A stretch of 41,918 bases of DNA from Enterobacter phage Arya, in sequence record KX231828.1; one strand, 5' to 3'. Each line of letters opens with the position of its first letter. Positions within the stretch are counted from its first letter, which is position 1. This document shows positions 607 to 25,272 of this stretch, in pieces. A program made the position numbers and the translations under genes. The notes beneath the pieces were generated by a model. That model ran no database searches. It saw nothing but the letters and a program-made list of their open reading frames with translations, and was not told where the DNA came from.

Positions 607-2623
607 TCCGTTTTCAAACCTGGACGGCATCGCCACTGCCATCAGGAAGGCACAACAACATTTGTTGCCGCCACCGGACATGAAGCCATCAGAGTGGGCG
701 CAGAACCATATCCGCATCCCTGCTGGTAACGCCGTTCCAGGACCGTTGCGCCTGGATAACGCGCCTTACCAGCGTGAACCAATGGATATGCTGGTTGACC
801 CGGATTGCTACCGCGTTACCCTGATGTGGGGCGCGCAGGTTGGCAAAACCATGCTGGCACTGTGCGTGCAGGCGTACAGCGTAGCCGCAGAGCCGCGCAG
901 CCAGATGATGATGCAGCCGTCACAGGATGACTTACGCACCTGGCTGGAAACCAAATTCAACCCGCTGGCGGAAGAATGCGCGCCGGTGAACACGGCTATT
1001 GCCAAACCGCGTGGCCGTGACGGCGTGAACAACCAGAAAATGAAATCCTACCCTGGCGGGTTCATGATGTTCGCCTGGTCAGGATCACCAAAGACCATGC
1101 GCGGGCGTTCCGCGCCGCTTATCGTTTGCGACGAGGTAGACGGATATGAACTGACTAGCGAGGGGCACCCGGTTGGCCTTCTGTGGCAGCGTTCTGCCAC
1201 GTTCGGTGACCAGCGTTTCCTACTGGAAATCAGCACCCCTACCATCAAGGGTGAATCCTACATTGAAAAAGCCTACGACATGGGCGACCAGCGGCATTAT
1301 TTCGTCTGCTGCCCGCACTGTGACGATCAAGTTACGCTGGAATGGGAAAACGTTAAATGGGATGGCCAGCGCGAAACGGATGATGAAAACCTGGCGACCA
1401 TCGAAGAACAGAAGCCGGAAACCGCGCACCTGTATTGCCCGTCCTGCGGTTCGCAGTGGAATGACGGTGAGAGGATAGCGGCTATCCGCCAGGCCGAAAG
1501 CAAAGGCGCTGGCTGGAAAGCCACCAGGCCGTTTGACGGTCACGCCAGCTACCACCTGAACGAACTGTACAGCACGTTCCGTAAGGTGCCGGCCATCGTG
1601 CGTGACTACCTGGACAAGCTGAAAACGGACGATTTGCAGACGTTCACCAACGTTAGCCTGGCGCGCACCTGGGAAGAGGAAGGCGACAAGGTTGACCCGG
1701 ATAGCCTGATGGCCAGACGCGAGGAATACGCGGCACCGGCACCGGCTGGCGTCCTGTACATCACCGCAGGCGTGGACATGCAGATTGACCGCCTGGAATG
1801 TGAGGTGGTTGGTTGGGGCGTTGGGGAAGAATCCTGGTCATTGGGTTACCACGTTCTGTGGGGTGACCCGCTTACGCCAGATCCTTGGGATGCCCTGGAT
1901 GACCTGCTGGCGGAAACCTACCTGCACGAAACCGGCGCTGTGCTGCCGATTAGTGCCGCCTGTTTAGATACCGGTGGCACCAGCGGTTACACGCAGGCCG
2001 CATATGACTACGCACGCGGGCGCACTGGCCGCCGTCTGTTCGCTATCAAAGGTGTTGGCGGTTGGGGCCGTCCAATCGTTGAGAAGCCGCAGCGCAAACA
2101 ATCCGGTAAGGATGCCCGTAAGGTTGATTTGTTCCTGGTTGGCACTGACGAAGCCAAACTGATCAACGCGCGCCGGTTGGGCAAGACTACGGCTGGCCCT
2201 GGGTTCTGCCACTTCCCGGCTGACCGTGACGAGGAATGGTTTAAACAGGTTACGGCTGAAAAACTCACTGTGCGTTACGTGAAGGGGCAGCCAATCCGCG
2301 AATGGAAGAAACCAGACCGCGCACGAAACGAGGCAACCGACTGCCGAAACTATGCCCTGGCGGCGCTAAAAATCATGCAGCCATCGTTTAAACGCCTTGC
2401 CGCAAAACTTGGCGTGGCCAACGACAACGCACCACCAGAGAAACGCGCACGCCTGCCATCGGTCAAACCGGTGATGAAACCGCAGGAAAAGCCAGCGAAA
2501 AGGGCCGTTGACACCCCGCACGAAGAAGAAAAGGCACCGGTAACGGAGACTAAACCGGACAAAATCAAACGTTCCGCCAGGCTTGGAAAGCAGCGGCGCG
2601 GCGGATGGATTAACCGGTATTAG
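566..2623 (+). CDS. terminase large subunit, lambda gpA-like
   Basis: A 685-aa ORF colinear with lambda gpA, for example KPSEWAQNHIRIPAGN against TAVEWADANYYLP and the LYITAGVDMQIDRLECEVVGWGVGEESW nuclease region against YLTAGIDSQLDRYEMRVWGWGPGEESW. The K/P/E-rich C-terminal tail contains one copy of the repeated 20-mer. It overlaps the TerS 3' end as in lambda. Confidence 0.92.
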   Translation: MAMTRKATVTAKNNPFSNLDGIATAIRKAQQHLLPPPDMKPSEWAQNHIRIPAGNAVPGPLRLDNAPYQREPMDMLVDPDCYRVTLMWGAQVGKTMLALCVQAYSVAAEPRSQMMMQPSQDDLRTWLETKFNPLAEECAPVNTAIAKPRGRDGVNNQKMKSYPGGFMMFAWSGSPKTMRGRSAPLIVCDEVDGYELTSEGHPVGLLWQRSATFGDQRFLLEISTPTIKGESYIEKAYDMGDQRHYFVCCPHCDDQVTLEWENVKWDGQRETDDENLATIEEQKPETAHLYCPSCGSQWNDGERIAAIRQAESKGAGWKATRPFDGHASYHLNELYSTFRKVPAIVRDYLDKLKTDDLQTFTNVSLARTWEEEGDKVDPDSLMARREEYAAPAPAGVLYITAGVDMQIDRLECEVVGWGVGEESWSLGYHVLWGDPLTPDPWDALDDLLAETYLHETGAVLPISAACLDTGGTSGYTQAAYDYARGRTGRRLFAIKGVGGWGRPIVEKPQRKQSGKDARKVDLFLVGTDEAKLINARRLGKTTAGPGFCHFPADRDEEWFKQVTAEKLTVRYVKGQPIREWKKPDRARNEATDCRNYALAALKIMQPSFKRLAAKLGVANDNAPPEKRARLPSVKPVMKPQEKPAKRAVDTPHEEEKAPVTETKPDKIKRSARLGKQRRGGWINRY

Positions 2624-2633
2624 GTAACTAACA

Positions 2634-3173
2634 GTGAAATGCTGCTCAATCCCGAAACAAATCACAGCCGGTCTGACGTTTGAAGCCCGGCTAAAAAAAT
2701 CAGGGTTCCCGCCTGCGCAATGGTCAGCCACGCTGATGCTGCGCGGGCCATCCAACGTTAATATCACCGGCACTGCTGACGGTGACTATTTCGTGTTCAC
2801 CGTACCAGCTACCGAAACAGCCAACTGGACACCAGGCGATTACTGGTACGCCGTGCGCGCCACCAGCGGCGCTGACGAGCAAGAACTGGAAAGCAGCCAG
2901 ACAACCGTATTGCCCGACATGGCCAATGCGCCAGAAGGCTATGACGGAAGAACACCTGCTGAAATCGCGCTGGCAGCCATTGACGCTGTGCTGGCAAAGC
3001 GCGCGACGATGGACCAGGAACGCTATCGCATCAACAACCGCGAACTGTACCACACACCGATTGCCGATCTGATTAAGCTGCGTGACATGTACCGCGCCGA
3101 AGTCAACCGCGAACGCGCAGCGAAGTGCGGCAAAAATCCATTTGGGCGCAAAGTGCGCGTGGTGCTTAGATAA
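2634..3173 (+). CDS. head-tail joining protein, gpW-like C-terminal domain with an unusual N-terminal extension (start uncertain)
   Basis: The C-terminal ~70 aa (TPAEIALAAIDAVLAKRATMDQERYRINNRELYHTPIADLIKLRDMYRAEV) align with lambda gpW ([49 protein letters not shown]). It sits between TerL and portal as in lambda. The frame is open from GTG 2634 and internal ATGs occur at 2736 and 2919, so the true start is unresolved. Confidence 0.6.
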   Translation: MKCCSIPKQITAGLTFEARLKKSGFPPAQWSATLMLRGPSNVNITGTADGDYFVFTVPATETANWTPGDYWYAVRATSGADEQELESSQTTVLPDMANAPEGYDGRTPAEIALAAIDAVLAKRATMDQERYRINNRELYHTPIADLIKLRDMYRAEVNRERAAKCGKNPFGRKVRVVLR

Positions 3174-4732
3174 TGGGAATATTTGACTTTTTAACACGCA
3201 ATAAGCCTGCGCCATCGCAGGATTTACCACAGAGAAAGCGCGGTTTTGTGCCGTCAAAGGCGGCAAAACGCATGTTTGACGGCGCGAAAGTTGACCGTTT
3301 AGGAGCTGGTTGGGGTACGCAGCCGCTGTCTGCTGATGACATTATCAGCAAGAACCAGCGTGTTTTAGTGGCGCGTTCCCGCGAACAGGCAGCCAATAAC
3401 GACTATGCGCGCGAATTTTTACGCCTTTGCAGAACAAATATTGTTGGCCAGAAAGGCATCTTGTTGCAGGCCAAAAGTATTGACAGCGCTGGCAAGCTGG
3501 ACACGCAAGCGAACGCAGCCATTGAACTGGCGTTTGCCAGTTGGGGCAAGAAACAGAACTGCGACGTTACCGGCGAACTGTCATGGCGTGGCATTCAGTC
3601 TGCGTGCATCAACACGGCTGCCAAAGACGGTGAATTTTTCATCCGCATGATCTGGGGCTCTGACGCAGGGCCGTGGGGTTTTTCCCTGCAAATGATTGAC
3701 CCGCAGCGATGCCCTGTTGATCTGGTAGAGGACCGCTTACCAAACGGCGCGTTCATCCGCCAGGGCATCGAATTTAACCGCTACGGCAGGCCGCTGGCGT
3801 ATTACTTCCGCACCCTGGATGATTCCGATGAATATTACAATTTTGCGGGCCGTGATTACGTGCGCGTTCCTGCTGATGAAATCATTCACGGTTTCGTAAA
3901 AGACATCGTTGGCCAGCGCCGTGGGCTGCCGTGGATGGCAACCGGGCTGTTCCGTATGCGCCACCTGAACGGCATGGAAGATGCCGCGCTGGTGAATGCC
4001 CGCGTTGGTGCCAACAAAATGGGGTTCATCGAATGGGATGATGGCAAGGGGCCACAATTCGATGACCCGGAAGAATACTACGTTGAAAGCGAACCGGGTG
4101 AATTCGAAATCCTGCCTGACGGCGCGCGCCTGAAAGAGTGGAACCCGCAATACCCTAGCGGTGAATTCGCCAGTTTCACCAAACAGATGCTGCGCGGCAT
4201 TTCTGCCGGGTTCGGTGTGGCTTACAACAACCTGGCCAACGACCTGGAAGGCGTGAACTATTCCAGCATTCGCCAGGGAACGCTAAACGAGCGCGAGAAC
4301 TGGAAAGAGCTACAGGAATGGTTGATTGAAACGCTGCACCAGACTGTATTTGACGCCTGGCTGCCGCGTGCGCTGCTGGCTGGCCGCATCACCGTTAAGG
4401 GCCGCAGCCTGAAGCCGGAACGAATTGACCGTTACAGCCTGATTGAATGGCAGCCGCGCCGCTGGTCATGGGTTGACCCGCAGGCAGATGTCAAAGCCGC
4501 CGAAACGATGAAAAACAACTTATTGCAGGCACCTGGCCGCATCATCAGGGAAATGGGCAACGATCCTGATGCTGTCTGGAAGGAAGCCGCCAGCGATATG
4601 CGCCGAATGTCTGATGAACTGGTGGCGCAGGGGTTCGAGAAGAAAGCCGCTGACAACTACGTGTTGCACAGCATGGGCCAGGATAAACAATTGTTGCATG
4701 GGCAAACCGATGAACAAAAACCGGCTGAGTAG
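3173..4732 (+). CDS. portal protein, lambda gpB-like
   Basis: A 519-aa ORF in the canonical position after W with a lambda-portal-like length and motif layout (NRYGRPLAYYF against DRYGRAVAYHI). Its ATG overlaps the previous stop (ATGA coupling). Confidence 0.88.
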   Translation: MGIFDFLTRNKPAPSQDLPQRKRGFVPSKAAKRMFDGAKVDRLGAGWGTQPLSADDIISKNQRVLVARSREQAANNDYAREFLRLCRTNIVGQKGILLQAKSIDSAGKLDTQANAAIELAFASWGKKQNCDVTGELSWRGIQSACINTAAKDGEFFIRMIWGSDAGPWGFSLQMIDPQRCPVDLVEDRLPNGAFIRQGIEFNRYGRPLAYYFRTLDDSDEYYNFAGRDYVRVPADEIIHGFVKDIVGQRRGLPWMATGLFRMRHLNGMEDAALVNARVGANKMGFIEWDDGKGPQFDDPEEYYVESEPGEFEILPDGARLKEWNPQYPSGEFASFTKQMLRGISAGFGVAYNNLANDLEGVNYSSIRQGTLNERENWKELQEWLIETLHQTVFDAWLPRALLAGRITVKGRSLKPERIDRYSLIEWQPRRWSWVDPQADVKAAETMKNNLLQAPGRIIREMGNDPDAVWKEAASDMRRMSDELVAQGFEKKAADNYVLHSMGQDKQLLHGQTDEQKPAE

Positions 4733-6731
4733 CATTATCGGCACGTATTACACCCGCGAAGCTGGCAGCAAACCGCTGCCTGACTTCAACAAAGGCGGGC
4801 TAGTTCGTACTATGGAAGTGCGCAGCATCGACACCGCAGCGCGCACCGTAGAACTGGCGTTTTCATCCGAAATCGAGGTTGAACGCTGGTACGGCATTGA
4901 AATTCTGGACCATGACCCGGCCAGCGTTCGCCTTGACCGTCTGCGTGACGGCGGGGCGTTGCTGGTGGACCATGACTGGACCGATCAAGTAGGCGTCATT
5001 GAATCCGTCACCATCGACGCAGACCGCCGGGGGCGGGCTGTTGTGCGTTTTGGTCGAAGCGCGCGAGCCGATGAGATTTTCAACGACATCGTTGACGGCA
5101 TTCGTAAACACGTTTCCGTTGGCTACCGCGTGTTAGCGGCGAAGCTGACAGAGACGCGCGACGAATGGCAGGACGTTTACCGGATCACTGATTGGGAACC
5201 TTACGAAATTTCTATTGTGAGTGTTCCCGCTGACAACAGCGTTGGCATTGGCCGTGCTCTTGACACCCCGCACGAAGAACAGCGGGCGGAGAAGCCCAAT
5301 ACTTCGCAAAGTACAAAACCCGTTTCTGAGGATTCACGAATGGAAAAGATTTTACGCGATGCGTCAGGCAACCTGGTGCGCGCACTGGTAGACGAAAAAG
5401 GCAACATCACGCAGGTTCTGGAAGTGCTGGAACGTGCTGGCGATGATGCCCGTAATGCTGAAAAGCGTGGCCGTGAAGCCGAACAGGCGCGCGTTCGTTC
5501 CATTACCGAAATGGGCGAGAAGTACAACGCGCGTGACCTGGCACTGAAAGCCATTGGCGACAACACCAGCGCAGAAGAGTTTCAGCGTTCCTTGCTGGAC
5601 CACCTGAACAAGCCGAAAGACCCGGCGCAGCCTGCTGAACGTTCTGGCAGCCGTCCACTGTCTGAAATGCCATCCAGCGTGATCGGCATGGATGAAAAAG
5701 ACATCCGCCGCTACTCAATTTTCAACGTGGTTCGCGCACTGGCAAACCCGAACGACGCAGCCGCACAGCGTGCCGCAGCGTTTGAGATCGAGTGCAGCAA
5801 CATGGCGCAGAAGCAATATGGCCGTAACGCCAAAGGCATTCTGATCCCGGATGACGTTCTGCGTGCGTTCAACGCCGGTGGTGCACCAAATACCCCGGCA
5901 GGCGCGCAAACCGGTTCCAACATGGTTGGCACTGACTTTATGGCCGGTTCGTTCATCGACCTGCTGCGCCCACGTACCACCATTATGCGCCTGGCGCGTA
6001 CTATGGGCGGTCTGGTTGGCAACGTCGAGATTCCGAAACAGACCGGTGGCGCAACTGCCTACTGGATTGGTGAAGGCGATGACGCCAACGAAACCACGCC
6101 GACCATCGGCCAGCTTGGTTTGTCACCAAAAACCGTGGCGGCTTACACCGACATTACCCGCCGTCTGCTGATGCAATCCACACCGGATGCGGAAGCCATC
6201 GTGCGTGGTGACCTGGTGGCAGCTATCGCGCAGGCGATTGACTACGCTGGTTACTACGGCACCGGCACCAGCAATCAGCCGTTGGGCCTGGCGAACTACA
6301 CCGGCATTAACGCGGTCGATTTCGCAGGTGCCAACCCGACTTATGCGGAACTGGTGCAGATGGAAACCGAAATTGCAGCCGACAACGCTGACGTGAACAG
6401 CATGGCATATGTGCTGAACGCGCGTGGCCGTGGTGCAGCGAAAACCACGCCGAAGTTTGCCAGCGGTGCTTCCGTTTCCGATGCTGGCGTGATTTGGGAG
6501 CCGGGCAACACCATTAACGGTTACCGCGCCGAAGTTACCAACCAGGTGCAGGATGGTGACGTGTTCTTTGGCAACTTCGCTGACCTGGTGGTTGGTATGT
6601 GGGGCGGTCTGGATATGACTGTTGACCCGTACAGCCTGAGCAAATCCGGTGGCCTGCGTATCGTTGTATTCCAGGACGTTGACTTTGCGGTGCGCCGTGT
6701 TGAGTCCTTCGCCCTGGGCCGCAACTCCTAA
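4698..6731 (+). CDS. fused prohead protease (HK97 gp4/U35-like) - scaffold/delta region - HK97-fold major capsid protein
   Basis: The N-terminal ~190 aa (VELAFSSEIEVERWYGIEILDHDPASV...ISIVSVPADNSVGIG) are an HK97-type prohead protease signature. The middle is a charged, coiled-coil-like, scaffold-like stretch. The C-terminal ~300 aa are an HK97-fold MCP-like domain. The track ORF starts at 4569 inside the portal gene; an in-frame ATG at 4698 (or 4710) is the likely start. A strong terminator follows at about 6738-6766. Confidence 0.8.
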   Translation: MGKPMNKNRLSSIIGTYYTREAGSKPLPDFNKGGLVRTMEVRSIDTAARTVELAFSSEIEVERWYGIEILDHDPASVRLDRLRDGGALLVDHDWTDQVGVIESVTIDADRRGRAVVRFGRSARADEIFNDIVDGIRKHVSVGYRVLAAKLTETRDEWQDVYRITDWEPYEISIVSVPADNSVGIGRALDTPHEEQRAEKPNTSQSTKPVSEDSRMEKILRDASGNLVRALVDEKGNITQVLEVLERAGDDARNAEKRGREAEQARVRSITEMGEKYNARDLALKAIGDNTSAEEFQRSLLDHLNKPKDPAQPAERSGSRPLSEMPSSVIGMDEKDIRRYSIFNVVRALANPNDAAAQRAAAFEIECSNMAQKQYGRNAKGILIPDDVLRAFNAGGAPNTPAGAQTGSNMVGTDFMAGSFIDLLRPRTTIMRLARTMGGLVGNVEIPKQTGGATAYWIGEGDDANETTPTIGQLGLSPKTVAAYTDITRRLLMQSTPDAEAIVRGDLVAAIAQAIDYAGYYGTGTSNQPLGLANYTGINAVDFAGANPTYAELVQMETEIAADNADVNSMAYVLNARGRGAAKTTPKFASGASVSDAGVIWEPGNTINGYRAEVTNQVQDGDVFFGNFADLVVGMWGGLDMTVDPYSLSKSGGLRIVVFQDVDFAVRRVESFALGRNS

Positions 6732-6737
6732 CCTGAA

Positions 6738-6766
6738 ATAGTGGCCGCTTCGGCGGCCATTTTTGC
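6738..6766 (+). terminator. rho-independent terminator after the capsid gene
   Basis: AGTGGCCGCTTCGGCGGCCATTTTTGCTT: a GC stem with a TTCG loop and a T-run, immediately 3' of the MCP stop. Confidence 0.7.
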
Positions 6767-7083
6767 TTAGAGGTAAGCTGATGAAATCCGTACTGCTTAA
6801 ACTGACTTCCGCCATTGTCATTGCTGGTTCCATTGCCAAAGCTGGCGAGGTTGTTGAAGTCACCGAACTGGAAGCAAAGAACCTGCTGGCACGCGGCAAA
6901 GGCGTGTTGAATGATGAACAGCCTGCTGATGAAGTTGATTTGGACCTGTCCAAAAAGACCAAAGATCAGTTGCTGGAAATCGCAGACAATCTGGAAATCG
7001 AAGGCGCGGCGAAGATGAACAAAGCGCAGTTGATTGAAGCTATCGAAGCCGCTGACAACGGCCAGGAAGAGGAAACCGAATAA
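6763..7083 (+). CDS. small head-associated protein with C-terminal HeH/Rho-N-like (SAP-like) motif
   Basis: The C-terminus TKDQLLEIADNLEIEGAAKMNKAQLIEAIEAA is a HeH/Rho-termination-N-like helix-extension-helix. It sits between the MCP and the head-completion genes. The ATG start is at about 6781. Confidence 0.5.
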   Translation: MLRGKLMKSVLLKLTSAIVIAGSIAKAGEVVEVTELEAKNLLARGKGVLNDEQPADEVDLDLSKKTKDQLLEIADNLEIEGAAKMNKAQLIEAIEAADNGQEEETE

Positions 7084-7445
7084 TGATCCGTCATGGTACT
7101 TCTGTGAAGGTGCTGGCAGCACCGGCCACCGTAACCGCTAACGGCAACGGCGCTGCGGTTGATGTCAGCAAATATGAAAGCCTGGTATTACTGCACGCTG
7201 TTGGCGCTATCACCGCAGGTGACAACACCATCAAACTGCAACACAGCGATGATGGTTCAACCGGTTGGACTGACGTTGCAAATGCTGCGTTCCCGAAACT
7301 GGACGCGACCACCAAAGAAGCAAGCCTGCTGTTCAACTCTGATCGCTTCAAAAAGTTTGTGCGTGTGGTTGATACGGTTAGCGGCACAACCCCGTCAGGC
7401 GTGCGTTCCGTGGTCCTGGTTGGCGTAACTAAAGAGTCACAGTAA
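7083..7445 (+). CDS. hypothetical virion protein (head completion / connector-like, beta-rich)
   Basis: A 120-aa ORF tightly coupled (ATGA) between the head and tail modules. No family was recognised. Confidence 0.4.
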   Translation: MIRHGTSVKVLAAPATVTANGNGAAVDVSKYESLVLLHAVGAITAGDNTIKLQHSDDGSTGWTDVANAAFPKLDATTKEASLLFNSDRFKKFVRVVDTVSGTTPSGVRSVVLVGVTKESQ

Positions 7446-7777
7446 TGCCAGCGCCGTCCTGGGAAAACCTGGACGACTTTTTTGACCTTGACACAGACGG
7501 CGGGTTTGCATTCCCCGCCGTTTTGCAATCTCAAAAAGGCTGGACCAGAACAATCAACGCCATCTTTGATGATCCGTACTTTAACGCGCAACTTGGCGAG
7601 TATGAAGCAGACACCAGCAGCCCGCGTTTGACAGCCAAAGAATCTGACCTGGCTGGCCTGTTGCGAGGTGACACAATTATTGTGGCTGGCGAAACCTTTG
7701 ACGTACTGGATTCACCTGAACAGGATGGCACCGGAACCGCAGTGATAAGGCTGGCGCGTCAGGATGCTAAACTTTGA
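7445..7777 (+). CDS. hypothetical head-tail joining protein
   Basis: A 110-aa ORF with a start overlapping the upstream stop and the position expected for a head-closure or neck protein. Confidence 0.4.
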   Translation: MPAPSWENLDDFFDLDTDGGFAFPAVLQSQKGWTRTINAIFDDPYFNAQLGEYEADTSSPRLTAKESDLAGLLRGDTIIVAGETFDVLDSPEQDGTGTAVIRLARQDAKL

Positions 7778-8315
7778 TATTGATTGGGACCAGCTACAGG
7801 ACGTAGCCAAAGAACTACAGGCCAGCGAAAAGCAATTCCGGGCCGCCTTAAGCCGTGCTGCAAACCGCACGGCTGCAACCCTTCGCAAAATGTCAGCCAG
7901 GGGGCTGAAAGACGAACTGCAACTGCGCACCCTGGCAGTGCTTCGCAAGCGCCTGAAATCCATCAAACTGAAATCCAAAGGAAAGGAAGGGCTGGTGCTG
8001 TGGTACGGGCTTAATGATCTGCCGGTCAGCAGTTTCAAAGGGCGCGTAAGCAAATCCAAAGAGGGTGCCAGTTTCCGTGGCCACCAGTTCAAAGGCGCGT
8101 TTGTGGCCAAAAGCGGCGTTAAGGGGAAACGCACGGTGTTTAAACGCAGTGGCAGTGGCCGCCTGCCGATTGCTGAACAGCTTATGCCTATCAAAGACCA
8201 GGCTGACATTTTCATTGAGGATGAAATTTTCACGCAGGTTGAGGAAATTTTCTGGAACAACTTCCGCCGCGATCTGGCCGCGCGCGTCAAATACAATCTT
8301 GGTGGCAAGAAATGA
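7764..8315 (+). CDS. tail completion protein, lambda gpZ-like
   Basis: Colinear similarity to lambda gpZ (NDLPVSSFKGRV against GDLPVIKLGNARV; FKGAFV against IPGAFI; RLPIAEQLMPI against RYPIDVVKIPM), with the same length class (183 aa). Confidence 0.6.
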   Translation: MLNFDIDWDQLQDVAKELQASEKQFRAALSRAANRTAATLRKMSARGLKDELQLRTLAVLRKRLKSIKLKSKGKEGLVLWYGLNDLPVSSFKGRVSKSKEGASFRGHQFKGAFVAKSGVKGKRTVFKRSGSGRLPIAEQLMPIKDQADIFIEDEIFTQVEEIFWNNFRRDLAARVKYNLGGKK

Positions 8316-8878
8316 ACGCGAACACGAATATTGACCTTGAAATTTTACATGACGCCATTGTTGCCGACATCAAAGCGGCGTTCCCTTCCCTGGTGACCGT
8401 TGAGTTTTACCAGGATGAACCGGAAATGCGCAAAAACCTGCCAATTCCTGCCTGCCTGCTGACGCTTTCGGAAATGGAAGTGGACCCGGAAATTGACCCC
8501 GGCACAGAACAACTGGCGGTGAACGCAACGTTTGAGGCTTATTTCATCATCAACAGCCTGCGCACCCCGCGTGCAAAACTGGCCATTCGCAAGAACATTG
8601 CCGCTTTCATGGCCTGGCTGCGCCTGCGCAGGTGGACCAACCCGGCTGACACCAGCAAGAAACTGCCGACCGGACCCGCTTACGTGATGGGCGGTTACCC
8701 TGACGACTTCCAGCCCGAAATTGATAAATACGAAGTGTGGCGCGTCGAGTGGCAGCAGGTCATCCACCTGGGCGAAACGATTTGGACCGATGAAGGCACC
8801 ACACCACAGAACCCGGTTTATAGCTGGGCACCTGACATCGGGAACGGCAACGAAGATAAATACCAGGATGCCGTATGA
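8312..8878 (+). CDS. hypothetical tail protein (possible tail terminator/neck)
   Basis: A 188-aa ORF lying between the Z-like protein and baseplate V, translationally coupled on both sides. Confidence 0.4.
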   Translation: MNANTNIDLEILHDAIVADIKAAFPSLVTVEFYQDEPEMRKNLPIPACLLTLSEMEVDPEIDPGTEQLAVNATFEAYFIINSLRTPRAKLAIRKNIAAFMAWLRLRRWTNPADTSKKLPTGPAYVMGGYPDDFQPEIDKYEVWRVEWQQVIHLGETIWTDEGTTPQNPVYSWAPDIGNGNEDKYQDAV

Positions 8879-9531
8879 ACAATTACGACATGACCGAAAT
8901 GAACCGCGCGCTGTCAAACCTGATACGCGTGGGAAACATCCGGGCGGTTGATGCAGCCAATGCCCGCGTGCGTGTAGCGTTCGGCGGTTGCGTCAGTGGT
9001 TGGATTCCCTGGGGAACGTCACGCGCTGGCAACCGGCGTGATTGGACCATGCCCAACGTTGGTGAACAGGTCATGGTGTTCGCGCCTTTCGGTGACCCAA
9101 CACAGGCCGTTGTTGGGCCGTCTATCTTCCAGGATGATTTCAGCGCGCCAGCTACCAGCCCGGATAAAGATGTGACCGTGTTCCCTGACGGCACAACGTT
9201 TGAATATGACAGCGCATCGAACACGTATACGCAGACCATTGCCGGTTCTGGCAATTGGGTGTTCAACCTGAAAAACGCGCAGATCAACACGGAAACGGCC
9301 ACCGTGACGGCGGAAACCAGCGTGACGCTGGACACGCCTGACACGATTTGCACCGGCAACCTGACCGTGGCCAAAAGTCTGACTATGGGCCAGGAGGGCG
9401 GAACAGCGACCATGAAAGGTGCCGTGTCAATAGAAGGACCATCCCTGACACACAACGGCAAGAATATTGGTTCTGACCATTCGCATAGCGGCGTTCAAAC
9501 AGGCGGCGGGAACACCGGCGCACCGGTTTAA
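8875..9531 (+). CDS. baseplate assembly protein V (P2 gpV-like spike, gp5/VgrG OB-fold)
   Basis: IRVGNIRAVDAANARVRVAFGGCVSGWIPW ... NLTVAKSLTMGQEGGTATMKGAVSIEGPSLTHNGKNIGSDHSHSG is the typical P2 gpV N-terminal OB-fold plus C-terminal spike motif. Confidence 0.85.
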   Translation: MNNYDMTEMNRALSNLIRVGNIRAVDAANARVRVAFGGCVSGWIPWGTSRAGNRRDWTMPNVGEQVMVFAPFGDPTQAVVGPSIFQDDFSAPATSPDKDVTVFPDGTTFEYDSASNTYTQTIAGSGNWVFNLKNAQINTETATVTAETSVTLDTPDTICTGNLTVAKSLTMGQEGGTATMKGAVSIEGPSLTHNGKNIGSDHSHSGVQTGGGNTGAPV

Positions 9532-9584
9532 TCTGACACCCCGCACGAAGATAGAAAACCTGTCGTGCGGGCATCATCGAGCAT

Positions 9585-9923
9585 ATGAACGGAACAGACG
9601 CGACCACCGGAAAACCGCTGGATGGGCTGGCCCATTTGCAGCAATCAATAAAAGACATTCTGACCACGCCGATTGGTTCGCGTGTGATGCGGCGCGACTA
9701 TGGCAGCCGCCTGCCCCGCCTGATTGACGCACCAATGAACCGGGCCACGCTGATTGACCTGTACGCGGCCACAGCCGAAGCACTGGCCACCTGGGAACCG
9801 CGTTTCAGCGTTCAGCAGGTTGTTGCCGTATCAGCCGCACCAGGGCGCGTGGAATTGGAGGTTACAGGCGAATATCTGCCTGATGGCCAACAGGTAACGA
9901 TTGATGGAATAGTGGTGACATAA
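9585..9923 (+). CDS. baseplate protein W (P2 gpW / T4 gp25-like)
   Basis: A 112-aa ORF: LAHLQQSIKDILTTPIGSRVMRRDYGSRLPRLIDAPMN is the GPW/gp25 signature. Confidence 0.85.
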   Translation: MNGTDATTGKPLDGLAHLQQSIKDILTTPIGSRVMRRDYGSRLPRLIDAPMNRATLIDLYAATAEALATWEPRFSVQQVVAVSAAPGRVELEVTGEYLPDGQQVTIDGIVVT

Positions 9924-10825
9924 TGGCCGGTGCATTCACCGTTGTTGATTTATCCCAACTGCCAGCGCCCAACGTTGTTGAACCGCTGGGTTTTGAAACG
10001 ATCCTGTCAGCAATGATTGCTGATTTACAGGAGCGTGACCCAACATTCACCGCGCTGGTGGAGTCCGACCCGGCTTATAAAATCCTTGAGGTTTGCGCTT
10101 ATCGTGAATTGCTGATGCGTCAGCGCGTCAACGAGGCTGCAAAAGCCGTCATGCTGGCTTACGCTACTGGCGCAGACCTGGACCAGCTTGGCGCTAACGT
10201 GGGCGTACAGCGTCAGGTCATTACGCCTGCTGATGACACCACCGTGCCGCCAACGCCTGCCTTCATGGAATCAGACGAAGATTTCCGCGCACGCATCCAG
10301 TTATCACCGGAAGGCTACACCACAGCAGGTTCAGAAGGTAGCTACGTGTTCCACGGCTTAGGCGCTGATGCTGACGTGAAAGACATTCAGGCCATCAGCC
10401 CGGAACCAGGCAAAGTCACCGTTTACGTGCTGTCACGTACCGGCGACGGAACCGCACCGGCTGGAACGATTACTGCCGTGACCAACACCCTCAACGGCGA
10501 AACCATCAGGCCGATGACCGATGAAGTCACAGTGCTGTCAGCAAACATTGTGAATTACACAATCACGGCTGAACTGACGCTGTTCCCTGGCCCTGATGCC
10601 ACAGTGGTGCTTCAATCTGCCATTGATGCCGTTACGGCGTTCGCAGAGGCACAGCGCCGCATTGGCTACGATGTCACGCTTTCTGGCCTGTATCACGCGT
10701 TGCATCAGCCTGGGGTGCAGAACGTCAACCTGACCAGCCCAACAGCATCACTGGTGTTGGGTGATGACCAGGCCAGTTACTGCACGGCGATCACTGTAAC
10801 CGTGGCGGATGATACTGATGTCTGA
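9923..10825 (+). CDS. baseplate protein J (P2 gpJ-like)
   Basis: A 300-aa ORF following W with P2-J-like conserved order and overlapping start and stop codons. Confidence 0.8.
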   Translation: MAGAFTVVDLSQLPAPNVVEPLGFETILSAMIADLQERDPTFTALVESDPAYKILEVCAYRELLMRQRVNEAAKAVMLAYATGADLDQLGANVGVQRQVITPADDTTVPPTPAFMESDEDFRARIQLSPEGYTTAGSEGSYVFHGLGADADVKDIQAISPEPGKVTVYVLSRTGDGTAPAGTITAVTNTLNGETIRPMTDEVTVLSANIVNYTITAELTLFPGPDATVVLQSAIDAVTAFAEAQRRIGYDVTLSGLYHALHQPGVQNVNLTSPTASLVLGDDQASYCTAITVTVADDTDV

Positions 10826-11405
10826 CTTACTGCCATATAACGCCACAGACCAGGAACGCGCACTGGCGGAAACAACCGCCAGGATTAGTGACGTTCCTGT
10901 TATCGTGCGTGAAGTCTGGAACCCTGACACCTGCCCGTCAAACGTCCTTCCTTGGCTGGCATGGGCATTCAGCGTTGATGATTGGGACACCGACTGGACG
11001 GACGAACAAAAGCGCCGGGTGATTAAGGAATCTGTGTATTCGCAGCGCATCAAAGGCACCATTGGCGCAGTTACGCGCCAGCTTGCGGCGCTTGGCTACC
11101 AGATTCAAATCCTGGAATGGTTCCAGCAGTCACCGCAAGGCGCGCCGTATACGTTTAACGTTTACATTACAGCAAACCAATACCCGCTAACGCAGGCAGA
11201 CTTTCAGAAAATATTACAGGTCATCGACACCAACAAGAACCTGCGTTCACACATGGATGAAACTCAGTTGATTGTTAAGTCAGAGGATAAAACGACAGTT
11301 GGCATTATCTGTGGCACAGGGAACGAAATTAGTCTGACGAATTACACCAGGTTTGTTGGTGCATTGAACGACTATGTTATGGCGCAATCCAATATTTATA
11401 TATAG
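10809..11405 (+). CDS. tail protein I (P2 gpI-like)
   Basis: A 198-aa ORF: LPYNATDQERALAETTARISDVPVIVREVWNPDTCPSNVLPWLAWAFSVD is the P2 gpI family motif. Confidence 0.8.
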   Translation: MILMSDLLPYNATDQERALAETTARISDVPVIVREVWNPDTCPSNVLPWLAWAFSVDDWDTDWTDEQKRRVIKESVYSQRIKGTIGAVTRQLAALGYQIQILEWFQQSPQGAPYTFNVYITANQYPLTQADFQKILQVIDTNKNLRSHMDETQLIVKSEDKTTVGIICGTGNEISLTNYTRFVGALNDYVMAQSNIYI

Positions 11406-11413
11406 GTGATTAA

Positions 11414-13855
11414 GTGGAACTAAAAACATACTTTGCACAGGACAGAACAGGAAACCTGATTCCGTCAGCCACAGTGTCCATTTACCTGACCGGCACAACC
11501 ACGCTGGCAACAGGTCTGAAAAATGTTTCAGGTGGAAACCTGGCTAACCCATTTAGCGCCGATGCTGACGGTAAAATCCAGTTTTATGCACCTGATGGCA
11601 TCTATGATATGCAGGTTTCGCTAGGTAGCACCACTGGCGTAAAAGTAACGTTTCAATGTTTGGACGTACAACAGCAACTGACTGACGCAAATAGCGCTGC
11701 TGACCGTGCAGAAAATGCGGCGGAAAGCATTGAAGATCAGACAGCAACGATTACCGCCAACACCCGCGAACAATGGCGCAGAGCACTGGCAGACGCCGGT
11801 TTAAGCCTTGTGTCAGGAAGTTTTGAGGAAGGGGCTACGGCCACCACAACAATTGATGCTGTATGGAACCAGGAAGGCGGACAATGCTATACCTGGGGCG
11901 GAACGCTGCCAAAAACCGTTCCGGCTAATTCGACCCCTGGAAGCACAGGTGGCGTTTCTTCTGGCGCGTGGGTTAGTGTAGCTGGAGTCATCCTAAGAAG
12001 TGATCTGTTATCAGAGGTGACATCATTAGGTGATAACTTAATCACCGTGAAACAACCTATTTCTAACAGTTCAGCCAGGAAGCTACATGATTGGGTTTCT
12101 GACCATATATCAGTAACTGACATGGCTGGTGTTGTCGGTGATGGAGTAAACGACGACGCACCAGGAATTATCGCTGCTATAACGGCGCTTTCAGCGGCAA
12201 AAAAGCCCGTGGTATTTGTCCCTGGCACATACCTGATTAGCACCAGCATTACCTTTAACACCCCGGTAAAGATCCATAATGGTGCTGTTCTAAAGGCAAG
12301 AAACGGTGCTGTTATTAGGTTCAATGCTGAAATTCAAGCTGGTGAATACAAGGTTTTTGATACAAACGATGATTTCGTAAGCAATTACCTACAGGTTCCT
12401 TCTGTCAAGATTGCGATGGGGCCGGTTCGCCCGGAATGGTTTGGCGCAAGAACGGTCAGTTCTTATGCTGAATTGGCAACGTCCATTGATTGTTCTTCGG
12501 CATTCCATAAAGCCTGGCACGCCACTTGTGGTGAATTCAATGTAGAACTAACACCAGGAAGCTTCTATCAATCTGAATTTTACCATTCTTATATTCTACT
12601 GGCGGCCGGGAAATACCGCATTGATAATAATCTTAAGTTTTGGTATCGAGTAACATCACCATCAGTCATCCGATATAACAAGAACGGCGGTGGTATTGTG
12701 GGTGCTGGAATGGGTTTATCCGTTATAGTGCTAACTAACCCGGCAGATGAAAGTAACGCTGCTATGGAGTTTAGTGATATGAGCGGCGAATTGCACATGT
12801 TCAGGGACTTCAAAGTTACCTTTTACGATTTTAACGCCACTGGTGATGCTCGCTGGTTCGGTCGTACAGGCGCAGGTATTCTGTTCTCTAGTTCAGACAG
12901 TATTTACACCCTGAATCTATGGGCGGCAGGATTTAAATATTTGAAGTTGGATGGTGATGGTGTTCGACGTGGTGGCGTTGGTATTCAGTTCGAATCGCTT
13001 GTTGATCACTTTTATGGGAACCTGCTTACTGAACATTGCGTACACGGAGTGGCGTTTAGTTCTTGTGTATCAAATGGCTATAACGCAAAAGGATTTGTAA
13101 ATACTGTAGCAGACATATCGTGTGGTAATTTTATTCCGGCCTGGCCTGACCTTATTGACCAGACAGGTATTAATTTGATCGCTTTATCCGGCCTGGAAAG
13201 TAAAGCATGTCCGGCCACTCCTATTTACTTTGGTACTGCGGACAACAGAGTTAGCATCACAAATGTAAACGTTAAAGGTAACGGTGAATCTTCATCAGCC
13301 GTAGTAACATACAGGGTTATTGATTTTAACCCTGCTGGTGGCGGCGCATCAGGACTCATTCAGGGCAATGCCATGAACGTTAACTATGGTCTTATTGATG
13401 ACCGAACCACCGGTTTTGCTGGCCGTGATGGTAGACCACTACGTTTGGTTTTTAATCTGCACAATGTTGCTGGTGCATCGTCAACAGAAACGGCAGTTGC
13501 TGTTTTCAGAAATCCACTATCAAACATAGATGTAGACATGGGTATTGATGGAGCTAAATCACCTGCGTTGATCAGTAACTGTAACCATGCAAAAGCTAAC
13601 CTTAACCTGAATAATATTTCTGGTTATACTCAAGCGCCTTATGCGGCATTCATCTGCGGAGCAGGTAAATTATTAATTCAATCCTTGAAAGTAAATGCCA
13701 CCACTAATGCGACATATCTTGGATATGCTGGCGGTTCAGCGCAGGTAATTCTTCCAGCGGCAATGGATGTTGATATCGCACCAGTCAGAAAAGGTTCTGG
13801 TTCAACAGCTGATATCAGGCAAGTATCCTCAGCTACTTATAGCACCATTCAGTAA
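11414..13855 (+). CDS. tailspike/tail fibre with pectate-lyase-like right-handed beta-helix (putative polysaccharide depolymerase)
   Basis: An 813-aa ORF: SVTDMAGVVGDGVNDDAPGIIAAITALSAAKKPVVFVPGTYLI matches the Pectate_lyase_3/tailspike beta-helix signature (GDGxxDDxxAIQAAI). GTG start. A terminator follows at about 13861-13888. Confidence 0.7.
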   Translation: MELKTYFAQDRTGNLIPSATVSIYLTGTTTLATGLKNVSGGNLANPFSADADGKIQFYAPDGIYDMQVSLGSTTGVKVTFQCLDVQQQLTDANSAADRAENAAESIEDQTATITANTREQWRRALADAGLSLVSGSFEEGATATTTIDAVWNQEGGQCYTWGGTLPKTVPANSTPGSTGGVSSGAWVSVAGVILRSDLLSEVTSLGDNLITVKQPISNSSARKLHDWVSDHISVTDMAGVVGDGVNDDAPGIIAAITALSAAKKPVVFVPGTYLISTSITFNTPVKIHNGAVLKARNGAVIRFNAEIQAGEYKVFDTNDDFVSNYLQVPSVKIAMGPVRPEWFGARTVSSYAELATSIDCSSAFHKAWHATCGEFNVELTPGSFYQSEFYHSYILLAAGKYRIDNNLKFWYRVTSPSVIRYNKNGGGIVGAGMGLSVIVLTNPADESNAAMEFSDMSGELHMFRDFKVTFYDFNATGDARWFGRTGAGILFSSSDSIYTLNLWAAGFKYLKLDGDGVRRGGVGIQFESLVDHFYGNLLTEHCVHGVAFSSCVSNGYNAKGFVNTVADISCGNFIPAWPDLIDQTGINLIALSGLESKACPATPIYFGTADNRVSITNVNVKGNGESSSAVVTYRVIDFNPAGGGASGLIQGNAMNVNYGLIDDRTTGFAGRDGRPLRLVFNLHNVAGASSTETAVAVFRNPLSNIDVDMGIDGAKSPALISNCNHAKANLNLNNISGYTQAPYAAFICGAGKLLIQSLKVNATTNATYLGYAGGSAQVILPAAMDVDIAPVRKGSGSTADIRQVSSATYSTIQ

Positions 13856-13860
13856 GTGTC

Positions 13861-13888
13861 GAACCCCGCTACGGCGGGGTATTATTTA
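13861..13888 (+). terminator. rho-independent terminator after the tailspike gene
   Basis: GAACCCCGCTACGGCGGGGTATTATTT. Confidence 0.55.
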
Positions 13889-13913
13889 AATCATTGATAA
13901 TCGTAGGCGAAAA

Positions 13914-15284
13914 ATGGCATTCATTACGATACATACAAATTACGGTTTGCAATCGCTAGCGAGAGCAGAATCCACAGGCGTACCTATCAATCTGACTCAT
14001 ATGGCTGTAGGTGATGGAAACGGTAACGCGGTAACGCCGAACCCTTCACAAACAACACTTGTGCGAGAGCAGTTCAGAGCCACCATCAATCGCGTGTATC
14101 AGTCAGCGGATGACCCGCTGCGCTTCACTGCTGAACTGGTTATACCAGCAAGCACTGGCGGTTTCACGTTGCGGGAAGTTGGCGTGTTTGATGCCGATGG
14201 TTCGCTGTTCGCCGTTGGTAATCTTCCAGACACTTACAAGCCTGTTGATACAGAAGGTGCCTACTCTGACACAGTTGTGCGACTTGATTTCATGGTGAGC
14301 AACGCCAGCACCATTACTTTGCAGGTTGATCCAAATGTTGTTGTTGTTACGCAACAATGGATTTCAAACAACGTGACGGCTGGAACAATAATTCCAGGCG
14401 GAACCACCGGGCAGGTTCTTGCCAAACAATCAAACACTGATGGTGACGTGCATTGGGTTGACCCAACACAGGCAAACGTTGTGGTTGACACCATAACCGA
14501 AAAACAAACCCTGGCAGCAAGCCAGACAGTTGTCATGCTAACTGAAACCATCACGCGCGGATTGGCTGTATATATCGAAGGCATCAGATTGCCGCAAGGT
14601 TCTGGCGTTGATGAGTGGCAGCCTGATGCGACCGACCCGGAGAAATTCACACTTGGGAAATCTTATCCTGATGGTTCTATTTTGCAGGCAGTGAATAACG
14701 AACCAGCAGGAAGCGCACCGGCACCGCTGGAACGCAGCAAAAACCTGTCAGACGTAGCAGATAAATCAACTTCACGCACAAATCTTGATGTTTTTAGCAA
14801 ATCGGAAACGCGACAGATGGCACCTGCTGGCCTGGTGGCTAGTTTTGCCAGAAGTTCAGCGCCAACAGGATGGATGAAAGCTAATGGTGCGGCAGTCAGC
14901 CGAACCGCTTACGCTGACCTGTTCGCAGCGATCGGCACCACGTTTGGAGCAGGGGATGGGCTTACCACTTTTAACCTGCCAGATCTACGCGGTGAATTTG
15001 TTCGCTACCTGGATGACGGCAGAGGCGTTGACTCAGGCCGCGCGCTTGGTTCTGCGCAATCTCACGCGCTGCAAAATATCACAGGCAAGGTTGTTGATGC
15101 CCGTTTCAACGCGAATAAATCCGCATCAGGTGCTTTCACACTAACAACCATTGGCCCTGCTGATAACGTGTCTACTGGACCAGGCAGCGCCTGCACTGTG
15201 AATTTTGACGCATCACGTGTGGCGAACACCGCCACGGAAACCAGGCCGCGAAACGTTGCCCTGTTGGCTTGCATTAAATTCTAA
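13914..15284 (+). CDS. tail fibre protein, P2 gpH-like N-terminus with C-terminal phage tail-collar domain
   Basis: The N-terminus HMAVGDGNGNAVTPNPSQTTLVREQF...FTAELVIPASTGGFTLREVGVFDADGSLFAVGNLPDTYKP matches the P2 H baseplate-attachment domain (MAVGDGGGKLPVP...IIAELVIPPEVGGFWMRELGLYDDAGTLIAV). The C-terminus TAYADLFAAIGTTFGAGDGLTTFNLPDLRGEFVR is a tail-collar motif. Confidence 0.85.
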   Translation: MAFITIHTNYGLQSLARAESTGVPINLTHMAVGDGNGNAVTPNPSQTTLVREQFRATINRVYQSADDPLRFTAELVIPASTGGFTLREVGVFDADGSLFAVGNLPDTYKPVDTEGAYSDTVVRLDFMVSNASTITLQVDPNVVVVTQQWISNNVTAGTIIPGGTTGQVLAKQSNTDGDVHWVDPTQANVVVDTITEKQTLAASQTVVMLTETITRGLAVYIEGIRLPQGSGVDEWQPDATDPEKFTLGKSYPDGSILQAVNNEPAGSAPAPLERSKNLSDVADKSTSRTNLDVFSKSETRQMAPAGLVASFARSSAPTGWMKANGAAVSRTAYADLFAAIGTTFGAGDGLTTFNLPDLRGEFVRYLDDGRGVDSGRALGSAQSHALQNITGKVVDARFNANKSASGAFTLTTIGPADNVSTGPGSACTVNFDASRVANTATETRPRNVALLACIKF

Positions 15285-15293
15285 GGCGGAAAC

Positions 15294-15599
15294 ATGAGCA
15301 CAAAAGCCGTTTATCAATATGACCTGGCTGGCATGTATACCGGTCAGACTGATGCCGATGAATCACCGCTGGAACCTGGCGTGTTCCTCATTCCTGCGCG
15401 GTGTGTTGAAGTGGCACCGCCTGAATTCACCGGTGGCCAGTGGCCGCGTTGGAATGGTGCAAAGTGGGAGCTGATCACCGTAGCACCGGCGAATGACAAT
15501 CAACCGGAAAGCCCGGTTGATAAACTGCGTGAATTCCTGAACGCAAACCCTGACGTGGCCGCGCTGATTGGCGCAACGAATGAGGCAAGCAATGTATGA
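15294..15599 (+). CDS. tail fibre assembly chaperone (Tfa / P2 gpG-like N-terminal domain)
   Basis: A 101-aa ORF immediately after the fibre gene. The motif GQWPRWNGAKWEL is the Tfa W-rich signature. Confidence 0.65.
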   Translation: MSTKAVYQYDLAGMYTGQTDADESPLEPGVFLIPARCVEVAPPEFTGGQWPRWNGAKWELITVAPANDNQPESPVDKLREFLNANPDVAALIGATNEASNV

Positions 15600-16369
15600 G
15601 CCGTGTTTTAGATTTGATCAGAGCGTTAAAGGCCGACCCGACAACAAATATTGTCACGGCTACAGTTTCACCGGTCAATCATCCTGACACCAAACAAATG
15701 GTAACCGGCGAAGCAGCCAAAGGCCGCCTGATCGGTGTTCGGGTATTTTCAACGCCAGGCGTTTCAACTTACACGCCGACGCCGGGAACCAAAGCTGTTC
15801 TGGTAGAGGTTCAGGGAGGTGGTGGCGGTGGTGGCGGAACAGGCACCACAGGTTCAGGATCGTTTGCGGCTGGTGGTTCTGGTGGTGCTGGTGGCGGTTA
15901 CGCGGCAAGTTATCTGACTTCTGGCTTTTCCAATATTGGTGTTACTGTTGGCGCTGGCGGCGGTGTTGCTGCAAACAGTGCAGGCGCTACCGGTGGAACG
16001 TCAGCATTTGGTGCGCTCATAAACTGCGCAGGTGGTGCAGGCGGTACGCTCGGAACCAGCGTAAGCACCACAAACGGAATGTTGGCCATCGGTGGTGCCA
16101 CTGGCGGAACAGCTACAGGCGGGAACATCATTAACGAACAGGGCGGCCACGGCATGTGCGCGTTTGTTAACACATCGCCATTAAGTGGCAGCGGTGGTTC
16201 CTCGCACTTCGGTTCTGGCGCTTACTACGCCAGCGGAACATCAGGAGGGCGACCAGCCACAAACCCTGGCTCTGGTGGTTCAGGTGCATGTTCATTGCAG
16301 TCTAACCCGTCAGGCATCACAGGCGGGAACGGCGCGCCAGGCATCGTGATTATTTGGGAATACGCATAA
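15596..16369 (+). CDS. glycine-rich protein of unknown function (tail-module moron or extra fibre component)
   Basis: A 257-aa ORF with ATGA coupling to tfa. It has a ~75-aa ordered N-terminus followed by about 180 aa of G/A/S/T-rich sequence (GGGGGGGGTGTTGSGSFAAGGSGGAGGG...). It sits at the G-FI junction where P2 carries Z/fun. Confidence 0.6.
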   Translation: MSRVLDLIRALKADPTTNIVTATVSPVNHPDTKQMVTGEAAKGRLIGVRVFSTPGVSTYTPTPGTKAVLVEVQGGGGGGGGTGTTGSGSFAAGGSGGAGGGYAASYLTSGFSNIGVTVGAGGGVAANSAGATGGTSAFGALINCAGGAGGTLGTSVSTTNGMLAIGGATGGTATGGNIINEQGGHGMCAFVNTSPLSGSGGSSHFGSGAYYASGTSGGRPATNPGSGGSGACSLQSNPSGITGGNGAPGIVIIWEYA

Positions 16370-16390
16370 TAAATTTTTTGTCGCCTTTGC

Positions 16391-16417
16391 CCGCATATCG
16401 CGGGCTTTTTTTTGTCC
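16391..16417 (+). terminator. rho-independent terminator
   Basis: GCCCGCATATCGCGGGCTTTTTTTTGTCC, immediately after the glycine-rich gene. Confidence 0.7.
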
Positions 16418-16506
16418 TGACACCCCGCACGAAGAAGCAGCAAGCGCCACGCGCCACAATCAAACTGCCTTTTTTTATGTGTGCACACATCAGGAAACCA
16501 CGAATT

Positions 16507-25237: not shown

Positions 25238-25242
25238 CACAC

Positions 25243-25271
25243 AGCCCGCCACTTCGGCGGGCTTTTTGTTG
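25243..25271 (+). terminator. rho-independent terminator
   Basis: CAGCCCGCCACTTCGGCGGGCTTTTTGTT, abutting the 3' end of the tRNA gene. Confidence 0.75.
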
Positions 25272-25272
25272 G

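Follow-up and report, generated by a model that had tools for sequence, protein, structure and literature searches.

Enterobacter phage Arya, a small Jilinvirus-like myophage (Iiscvirinae), carries an 18-bp box, TGACACCCCGCACGAAGA, which is repeated at the heads of its late operons and is very likely the upstream activator site of its late promoters. For the fuller reading, in which the boxes are late promoters bound by the phage's own Mor/C-like activator, we estimate a probability of about 0.75 from sequence comparisons. The window analysed here (41,918 nucleotides, nt; KX231828.1) is the whole ~42 kb genome, which encodes a lambda-type terminase and portal, a fused protease-scaffold-capsid gene and a P2-type tail, and is 78–84% identical at the nucleotide level to Klebsiella phage KA2-1 and the Jilinvirus phages ep3, ECOO78, ECO1230-10, HeidiAbel_Bas97 and PT1 (Iiscvirinae). 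This group has been called poorly characterised and promoters go unmentioned in the literature that we found (PMC11990801; PMC9151335); as far as that literature goes, the late-promoter boxes are apparently new to the group. They represent an ordinary kind of phage control element, of which Arya provides an unusually clean example.

A repeated box in the late region of Arya

Four exact copies of the 18-mer are present on the plus strand, which is the late-gene strand, and none on the other (Table 1). Dinucleotide shuffling gave a chance expectation of 0.01 copies, and none of 100 shuffled sequences reached four. The base following the 18-mer is T in copy 3 and A in the other three. When the four copies were aligned together with 100 nt on either side, identity was limited to 18–20 nt and the flanks were unrelated, which rules out a longer repeat unit. 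Further copies with up to three mismatches were not found anywhere in the window. A degenerate fifth box, GGACAACACCCCCAAAGA, is located inside the 3' end of the predicted activator gene; it differs from the other four boxes at seven of the 18 positions, one otherwise invariant C being broken, and was absent from the original prediction, an account of the Arya sequence that listed four copies.

All four sites given in that prediction do contain the exact 18-mer, and the contexts ascribed to them were confirmed by the positions of open reading frames (ORFs) and protein domains. Copy 1 lies in the tail of TerL (ORF 566–2623), beyond the Pfam nuclease domain, which stops at residue 607. Copy 2 is situated between the Peptidase_S78 (residues 131–223) and Phage_capsid (residues 453–717) domains of the fused protease-scaffold-capsid protein. 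Copy 3 follows the gpV stop codon (TAA, 9529–9531), and copy 4 stands behind a terminator and ahead of the sheath gene, which has a Shine-Dalgarno sequence (SD) at 16492–16497 and starts with the ATG at 16507. It is equally correct that both coding copies are read as DTPHEE.

The repetition itself, and nothing more, would be in keeping with a host-derived dispersed repeat, similar to repetitive extragenic palindromic (REP) elements, or with a site for a packaging or nucleoid protein. However, the exact 18-mer was hit once among 2.9 million viral contigs and 11 times among 241 million metagenome records; all of these hits were single and unrelated, no contig containing more than one copy. The sequence is thus not common elsewhere, an outcome which favours function. 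Furthermore, the element is not palindromic and two or three of its copies are coding, whereas REP elements and bacterial interspersed mosaic elements are usually palindromic and intergenic. Binding of a packaging protein, one of the roles initially considered, agrees poorly with sites that are dispersed at operon heads rather than clustered as in cos or pac. We consider the probability of a host repeat or packaging site to be close to negligible.

Table 1. Coordinates of the boxes and associated features in the genome of phage Arya. TSS, transcription start site.
Feature	Position	Strand	Context
Box copy 1 (predicted activator site of P1)	2509–2526	+	TerL C-terminal tail, read DTPHEE; syntenic box in all relatives
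-10-like hexamer GAGACT	2546–2551	+	19 nt past box 1; predicted TSS near 2558, upstream of head-tail joining gene (GTG 2634) and portal gene
Box copy 2 (predicted activator site of P2)	5261–5278	+	Linker from protease to scaffold/capsid, ORF 4569–6731; read DTPHEE
-10-like hexamer AATACT	5298–5303	+	19 nt past box 2; predicted TSS near 5310
SD GAGGA (5328–5332) and in-frame ATG (5340)	5328–5342	+	Predicted internal start of nested scaffold-capsid product (MEKILRDASGNLVRA...)
Box copy 3 (predicted activator site of P3)	9534–9551	+	Non-coding; starts two bases past gpV stop
Hairpin CCCGCACGA...TCGTGCGGG	9540–9571	+	5' arm is box 3 core; 3' arm ends at -10 hexamer
-10-like hexamer CATCAT	9572–9577	+	20 nt past box 3
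Intrinsic terminator (GCCCGCATATCGCGGGC then T8)	16389–16413	+	Ends baseplate/tail-fibre operon just ahead of box 4
Box copy 4 (predicted activator site of P4)	16418–16435	+	Non-coding; four bases past terminator; upstream of sheath gene
-10-like hexamer CACAAT	16455–16460	+	19 nt past box 4; predicted TSS near 16467
Predicted late-activator gene	39761–40210	+	149 amino acids, C-terminal helix-turn-helix, PHROG 836; directly upstream of holin, endolysin, spanin and terminase genes
Degenerate fifth box (predicted activator site of P5)	40135–40152	+	Inside 3' end of activator gene, read DNTPKD
-10-like hexamer AACCAT	40172–40177	+	19 nt past box 5; upstream of holin ATG 40216

Anatomy of the probable promoters

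Each box is followed by a -10-like hexamer at an almost fixed distance. Among 53 boxes from 13 genomes of Arya and related phages, a hexamer of the form nAnnnT starts 19 nt past the box in 49 cases and 20 nt past it in the remaining four, the counts at all other offsets from 5 to 39 nt being 0–8. The second-position A and the sixth-position T are the most important bases of the sigma-70 -10 element. The consensus of the hexamers is (G/C)AnA(A/C)T, and those of the AT-rich Acinetobacter phage read CATAAT, TATAAT and TAAAAT. No -35 hexamer was found at the boxes, and a consensus promoter scan calls no promoter at any of them. The late region contains nine canonical sigma-70 promoters on both strands, two of them on the plus strand, versus 11.4 expected, with no excess on the plus strand. 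When the hexamer is set at -12 to -7, the 18-bp box extends from about -49 to -32 and is centred near -40.5, a position in which it would take the place of the -35 hexamer.

A plain sigma-70 promoter based on the TTGACA of copies 1 and 2 was rejected: no -10 hexamer is present 16–18 nt downstream of it, and copies 3 and 4 read CTGACA.

A role of the element at the RNA level, in the processing, stability or antitermination of long late transcripts, would fit the location of all copies on the transcribed strand as well as the ability of copy 3 to pair with downstream sequence, which is accompanied by compensatory changes in relatives. However, the four copies share no common fold (z 0.35, 0.04, -1.76 and -1.96) and no Rfam family was detected at the element, the only hit in the window to reach the gathering threshold being a tRNA. 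Copy 4 is preceded by a strong terminator and should therefore be found in little read-through RNA. Finally, an RNA signal neither needs nor predicts a hexamer at a fixed distance, the -11A and -7T of which are present at 53 of the 53 sites. A signal of this kind, which the original prediction had listed among its candidates, is very unlikely, and the evidence favours another of them, namely a binding site for a late activator at late promoters.

Concerted variation of the box in related phages

Boxes of the same kind are present at the same syntenic places in sixteen related phages, the hosts of which range from Escherichia to Xanthomonas and Acinetobacter and also include Klebsiella, Salmonella, Serratia, Pseudomonas, Burkholderia, Achromobacter and Aquabacterium (Table 2). 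Portal-anchored searches of genome and viral contigs added seven loci only. The five places are the 3' end of the activator gene ahead of the holin gene, the TerL tail, the protease/scaffold linker, the gpV-gpW spacer, and the region past a terminator and ahead of the sheath gene. The 12-mers that recur most often in each relative tested turned out to be a genome-specific version of the box, confined to the late-gene strand and to these same places. The fifth box, degenerate in Arya, is a copy with 0–2 mismatches in the ep3-group phages, MQ-4, Persinger, Mica, Mano, PPpW-3 and FoX1. Retention of the box by relatives at all syntenic positions again favours function, and the element is both real and functional in kind.

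Table 2. Versions of the box in Arya and related phages.
Genome	Box	Copies
Arya and contig L031	TGACACCCCGCACGAAGA	4 and a degenerate fifth (Arya)
KA2-1 and contig L030	TGACAAGCCGCACGAAGA	4 (KA2-1)
Contig L008	GACAACCCCCACGAAGA	3 (partial contig)
Contig L032	TGACAACCCACACGAAGA	3 (partial contig)
ep3, Bas97, ECOO78, PT1	TGACAAACCCCAAGAAGA	5
MQ-4	GACAAACCCAAAGAAGA	5
Mano	GGAAAA[G/C/T]CCGCAAGAGGA	5
PPpW-3	GGCAAACCCACAAGAGGA	5
Persinger	GGAAATCCCACAAGAGGA	5
Mica	GGAAATCCCACGGGAGGA	5
Aquabacterium prophage	GGAAAACCCACTAGAGGA	3 (partial contig)
FoX1	GGAAATTCCGGACATGG	5
Alexa	AAAAAGCGCAGGATGAA	3

Six positions of the 18-mer are invariant across the family (G2, A5, C8, C9, A15 and G17). The mean pairwise mismatch between boxes is 0.59 within a genome versus 5.13 between genomes, and positions that are free to vary across genomes are still identical inside one genome. 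The peptide encoded by the coding copies follows the DNA version (DTPHEE, DKPHEE, DKPQEE, DKPKEE, EIPREE and ENPLEE). Non-coding and coding copies change together and therefore the constraint acts on DNA, in line with the initial suggestion that the nucleic acid, rather than the peptide, is under selection. Thus, the same 18 bases are kept exact whether they are translated or not, providing a clear case of a regulatory sequence overlaid on a coding one. The coding copies would reside in disordered linkers tolerant of any peptide that the box happens to encode.

One common reading frame applies to the coding copies (sites 1, 2 and 5) of every genome and yields (D/E)xPxE(E/D). This observation could be taken to mean that the coding copies represent a peptide motif, (D/E)xPxEE, serving as a prohead-protease cleavage site, as had also been proposed, or as an interaction site, and that the non-coding copies are incidental. 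However, two of the exact copies are non-coding, the peptide varies along with the DNA, and the activator, TerL and the protease-capsid protein have no common processing step. Moreover, since the sites are syntenic, the shared frame amounts to three independent events only. A peptide motif is thus exceedingly improbable.

The identity within a genome of positions that vary between genomes might alternatively be due to gene conversion, or the boxes might be short homology linkers for module exchange, in either case with no regulatory role; Arya encodes an exonuclease VIII-type recombination module. However, 18 bases lacking flanking homology are a poor substrate for conversion. The boxes are unlike even between close relatives and for this reason cannot guide exchange between phages, and recombination between direct repeats within one genome would delete essential genes. 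Both possibilities leave the -10 hexamer and the placement at operon heads unexplained, and we regard them as highly unlikely. Gene conversion over 18 bp without flanking homology is an unlikely cause of the identity, the simplest account of which is co-evolution of the boxes with a highly specific activator.

In the Arya lineage, the four dispersed boxes share the changes A6C and C10G relative to the type represented by contig L008, and the fifth box has neither. The same split of the fifth box from the other four is displayed by contig L031, the activator of which is 81% identical to that of Arya, and the split is thus a stable arrangement. In RcapMu, a Mu-like phage with an activator 31% identical to that of Arya, a de novo search for an equivalent multi-copy box revealed nothing above the GC-rich background.

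The predicted late activator

The best candidate for a factor acting on the boxes is the product of the gene located at 39761–40210. The protein matches PHROG 836, 'late transcriptional activator' (E=1.7e-29). Mu C and Mu Mor, which belong to PHROG 532, also match PHROG 836 (2e-11 and 1e-10, respectively) over the linker and the helix-turn-helix. A tblastn search reaches the C homologue of RcapMu, the Pfam domain Mor was found on one of 183 activator homologues, and the annotators of phage Mano recorded an HHpred match to 1RR7.

Several observations weigh against this protein being a Mor/C-type reader of all five boxes. The Arya activator itself is not matched in the Pfam Mor search, hhalign against the Mu C sequence returned nothing, and a profile search of the PDB retrieved generic helix-turn-helix domains only. 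The box has no dyad symmetry either: at any centre of the 18-mer the best arrangement has three of seven complementary pairs, and inclusion of the flanks is of no help. With seven of 18 positions mismatched in the box of the lysis/terminase operon, the same protein may or may not serve box 5. Recognition helix and box do covary, ERTVKRH (ERTVSRH in MQ-4) being paired with boxes having the outer parts GACA...GAAGA, and DRHVRNL, ERTVRNL and DRHIKNL with boxes of the GGAAA...GAGGA type, but this covariation is in effect one clade split. In addition, an activator 81% identical to that of Arya goes with the same box and one that is 84% identical with a different box. Since the direct tests against Mu C and Pfam Mor fail, we refer to the product as Mor/C-like on the strength of a remote predicted relationship, with no claim of proven family membership. 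Boxes of some relatives include partial short inverted repeats, for example GGAA-A-TTCC in FoX1. A simple code relating residues to bases was not resolvable from the five closer relatives.

The box could also be a late-promoter element read in another way, with the 149-amino acid protein acting as a substitute for, or appropriator of, sigma region 4 in the manner of T4 MotA/AsiA, or with some other phage factor reading the box. T4 middle promoters (MotA box, -10, AsiA) indeed resemble those of Arya in having a phage-specific box instead of a -35 hexamer upstream of a sigma-70 -10 hexamer. However, the MotA box is ~9 bp long and centred at -30, whereas the Arya box reaches about -49, which is further upstream than a -35 element or the MotA box. 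Neither a MotA or AsiA homologue, nor any AsiA-like partner or sigma gene, was seen in Arya. The family profile of the activator is matched by Mu C and Mor at about 1e-11, and its gene is positioned directly before the lysis and late genes, as is that of Mu C. An appropriator or another phage factor reading the box is unlikely, and we favour an activator that would bind the box and recruit the host RNA polymerase.

Six versions of the box occur among enterobacterial phages with activators that are 60–85% identical. It is possible, albeit doubtful, that box and activator form fast-diversifying, mutually orthogonal specificity pairs. If so, this would point to selection for private activation of late genes, which could, for example, keep co-resident relatives or satellites from activating the late genes of the phage and vice versa, and promoter sequence would be imposed on three coding linkers, including the C-terminal tail of the activator itself. 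The natural series of box and activator variants constitutes a data set for how Mor/C-like activators read DNA and could yield orthogonal activator-promoter pairs.

The C-terminal tail of the activator contains A-N-D-N, a motif conserved throughout the family that is encoded by the P5 -10 hexamer (GAT AAC AAT, or GAC AAT; 40160–40180), and the residues just ahead of it are encoded by box 5. Conservation of the tail may for this reason reflect promoter constraint rather than protein function. Immediately upstream of the activator gene, a stretch of ~300 bp with an AT-rich core (39400–39710) contains (T/A)(T/G)GTCACC twelve times, counting both orientations, and thereby 12 of the 56 GTCACC sites of the whole window. 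Bas97, ep3 and contigs L030–L032 have the same heptamer cluster ahead of the activator gene, and Burkholderia phage Mica has it in the form GGTGACA. The cluster resembles an origin of the iteron type or an array of operators for the activator's own (middle) promoter.

Comparison with known late-promoter systems

In phage Mu, the C protein recruits the host RNA polymerase at Plys, PI, PP and Pmom. The Mu late promoters have a -10 hexamer and no -35 hexamer, the C site overlapping the -35 region; the segment from -52 to -34 is indispensable, and in footprints C protects about -30 to -55 (PMC2582627). The C site is centred at -43.5 (PMC2582627; bioRxiv 10.1101/2025.05.02.651988). The late system predicted for Arya would share with that of Mu a small activator that has a C-terminal helix-turn-helix and whose gene directly precedes the lysis and late genes, four or five late promoters of one orientation with a -10 but no -35 hexamer, a conserved box of ~18–19 bp overlapping the -35 region, and one promoter each for the lysis, protease/scaffold and baseplate genes. 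The two systems differ in several respects. The Arya box lacks the imperfect dyad symmetry of the Mu C and Mor sites, and it lies ~3 bp nearer to the -10 hexamer (centre near -40.5 versus -43.5, the Arya TSS being predicted). The Arya copies are near-perfectly identical within the genome, unlike the degenerate sites of Mu, and the activators belong to sister families, PHROG 836 and PHROG 532, respectively. Furthermore, Arya is not a transposable phage and combines a lambda-like terminase and portal with a P2-like tail.

The late promoters of P2 and 186 (PP, PO, PV and PF), which are activated by the zinc-finger proteins Ogr and B, resemble those predicted for Arya in being four in number, activator-dependent and equipped with poor -35 regions. 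These phages also share with Arya the P2-type tail, with one late promoter before the baseplate genes and one before the sheath gene, although in Arya the predicted baseplate promoter is ahead of W and not of V. A reading of the copies as P2-type promoters is not supported, however: no TGT-N12-ACA dyad is present within -100 to +50 of any of the five Arya boxes, and a tblastn search with the Ogr/Delta protein of MQ-4 found nothing significant in Arya or nine other relatives. Serratia phage MQ-4 (L006), alone of the ten relatives checked, carries an Ogr/Delta zinc-finger gene (25115–25357; PF04606, E=1.8e-19), beside which it keeps the Mor/C-like activator and five boxes; the Ogr/Delta protein is an accessory second regulator of the late type. 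Since only MQ-4 possesses such a gene and no dyad is found near the boxes, the general factor cannot be an activator of the Ogr type. The original interpretation is thus partly supported.

Proposed late transcription units

Binding of the activator to the boxes, each followed 19 (or 20) bp further on by a weak sigma-70 -10 hexamer, would give rise to five late transcription units, all in the same orientation. The promoter within the activator gene, P5, would serve the lysis genes and terminase, and that in the TerL tail, P1, the portal, the protease and the head-tail joining protein. From the protease/scaffold linker, P2 would drive the genes for head and tail completion as well as a nested scaffold-capsid product. 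P3, past gpV, would produce a leaderless gpW mRNA and then the transcripts for baseplate and tail fibres, and P4, past the terminator, would serve the sheath, tube, tape measure and remaining tail genes. The geometry downstream of the boxes, with an SD and ATG after P2, the gpW ATG after P3 and a terminator before P4, fits real transcription starts. The resulting late-transcription map, with its five promoters, activator, nested scaffold-capsid product and leaderless baseplate mRNA, is testable and extends to Jilinvirus, other Iiscvirinae and related phages of Pseudomonas, Burkholderia, Achromobacter, Xanthomonas and Acinetobacter, several of which have been considered for therapy or biocontrol.

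An in-frame ATG with an SD-like sequence is found 29–53 nt past the predicted P2 TSS in 12 of 13 genomes, and P2 probably drives a scaffold-capsid product that lacks the protease. Similarly, in lambda C/Nu3 and Mu I/Z an in-frame internal start in the protease-scaffold gene gives a shorter and more abundant scaffold, and RcapMu is annotated with a nested protease-scaffold arrangement too. In contrast to these cases, the predicted nested product of Arya would include the capsid domain, and its own promoter, predicted to depend on the activator, would lie inside the coding sequence, 62 nt ahead of the internal ATG.

The gpW gene of Arya starts with an ATG (9585) located 7 nt past the CATCAT hexamer and not preceded by an SD. 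In 11 of 11 genomes the gpW ATG is situated 5–8 nt past the P3 -10 hexamer (the 19-nt offset being used) and lacks an SD. Given this proximity to the hexamer and the lack of an SD, the gpW mRNA is predicted to be leaderless, which we consider probable.

The hairpin formed by the core of box 3 and the sequence that precedes the -10 hexamer displays compensatory changes in KA2-1 (GCCGCACGA/TCGTGCGGC) and contig L008 (CCCCCACG/CGTGGGGG). In the gpV-gpW spacer of ep3, MQ-4, Mano, PPpW-3 and L011, another strong hairpin (z -4 to -7) is present; its loop contains the -10 hexamer, and the gpW ATG is part of the 3' arm. The spacer hairpin might serve to keep gpW silent on read-through transcripts, or to insulate P3.

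The terminator ahead of box 4 is the sole strong one in the late region. Two more terminator-like hairpins are encoded on the plus strand, one past the capsid gene (6740–6761) and one past the tail-spike gene, which occupies 11414–13855 (13863–13880); neither is followed by a box.

Other features of the Arya genome

Derivation of the sequence from an Escherichia coli prophage was considered and rejected, the copy-3 region being unmatched in 5,426 E. coli genomes. A tRNA-Arg(TCT) gene is located at 25273–25349 on the minus strand; relatives have a tRNA gene at this place, adjoining the integrase gene. The minus strand also encodes a CI-like repressor with HTH_3 and Peptidase_S24 domains (30574–31116). 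Upstream of the activator gene, ORF 38282–39040 contains a dATP/dGTP pyrophosphohydrolase (MazG-like) domain (PF04447, E=9e-38). The GC content of the segment 12001–14000 is markedly lower than elsewhere (0.44 versus about 0.55), which suggests that it comprises a recently acquired receptor-binding gene.

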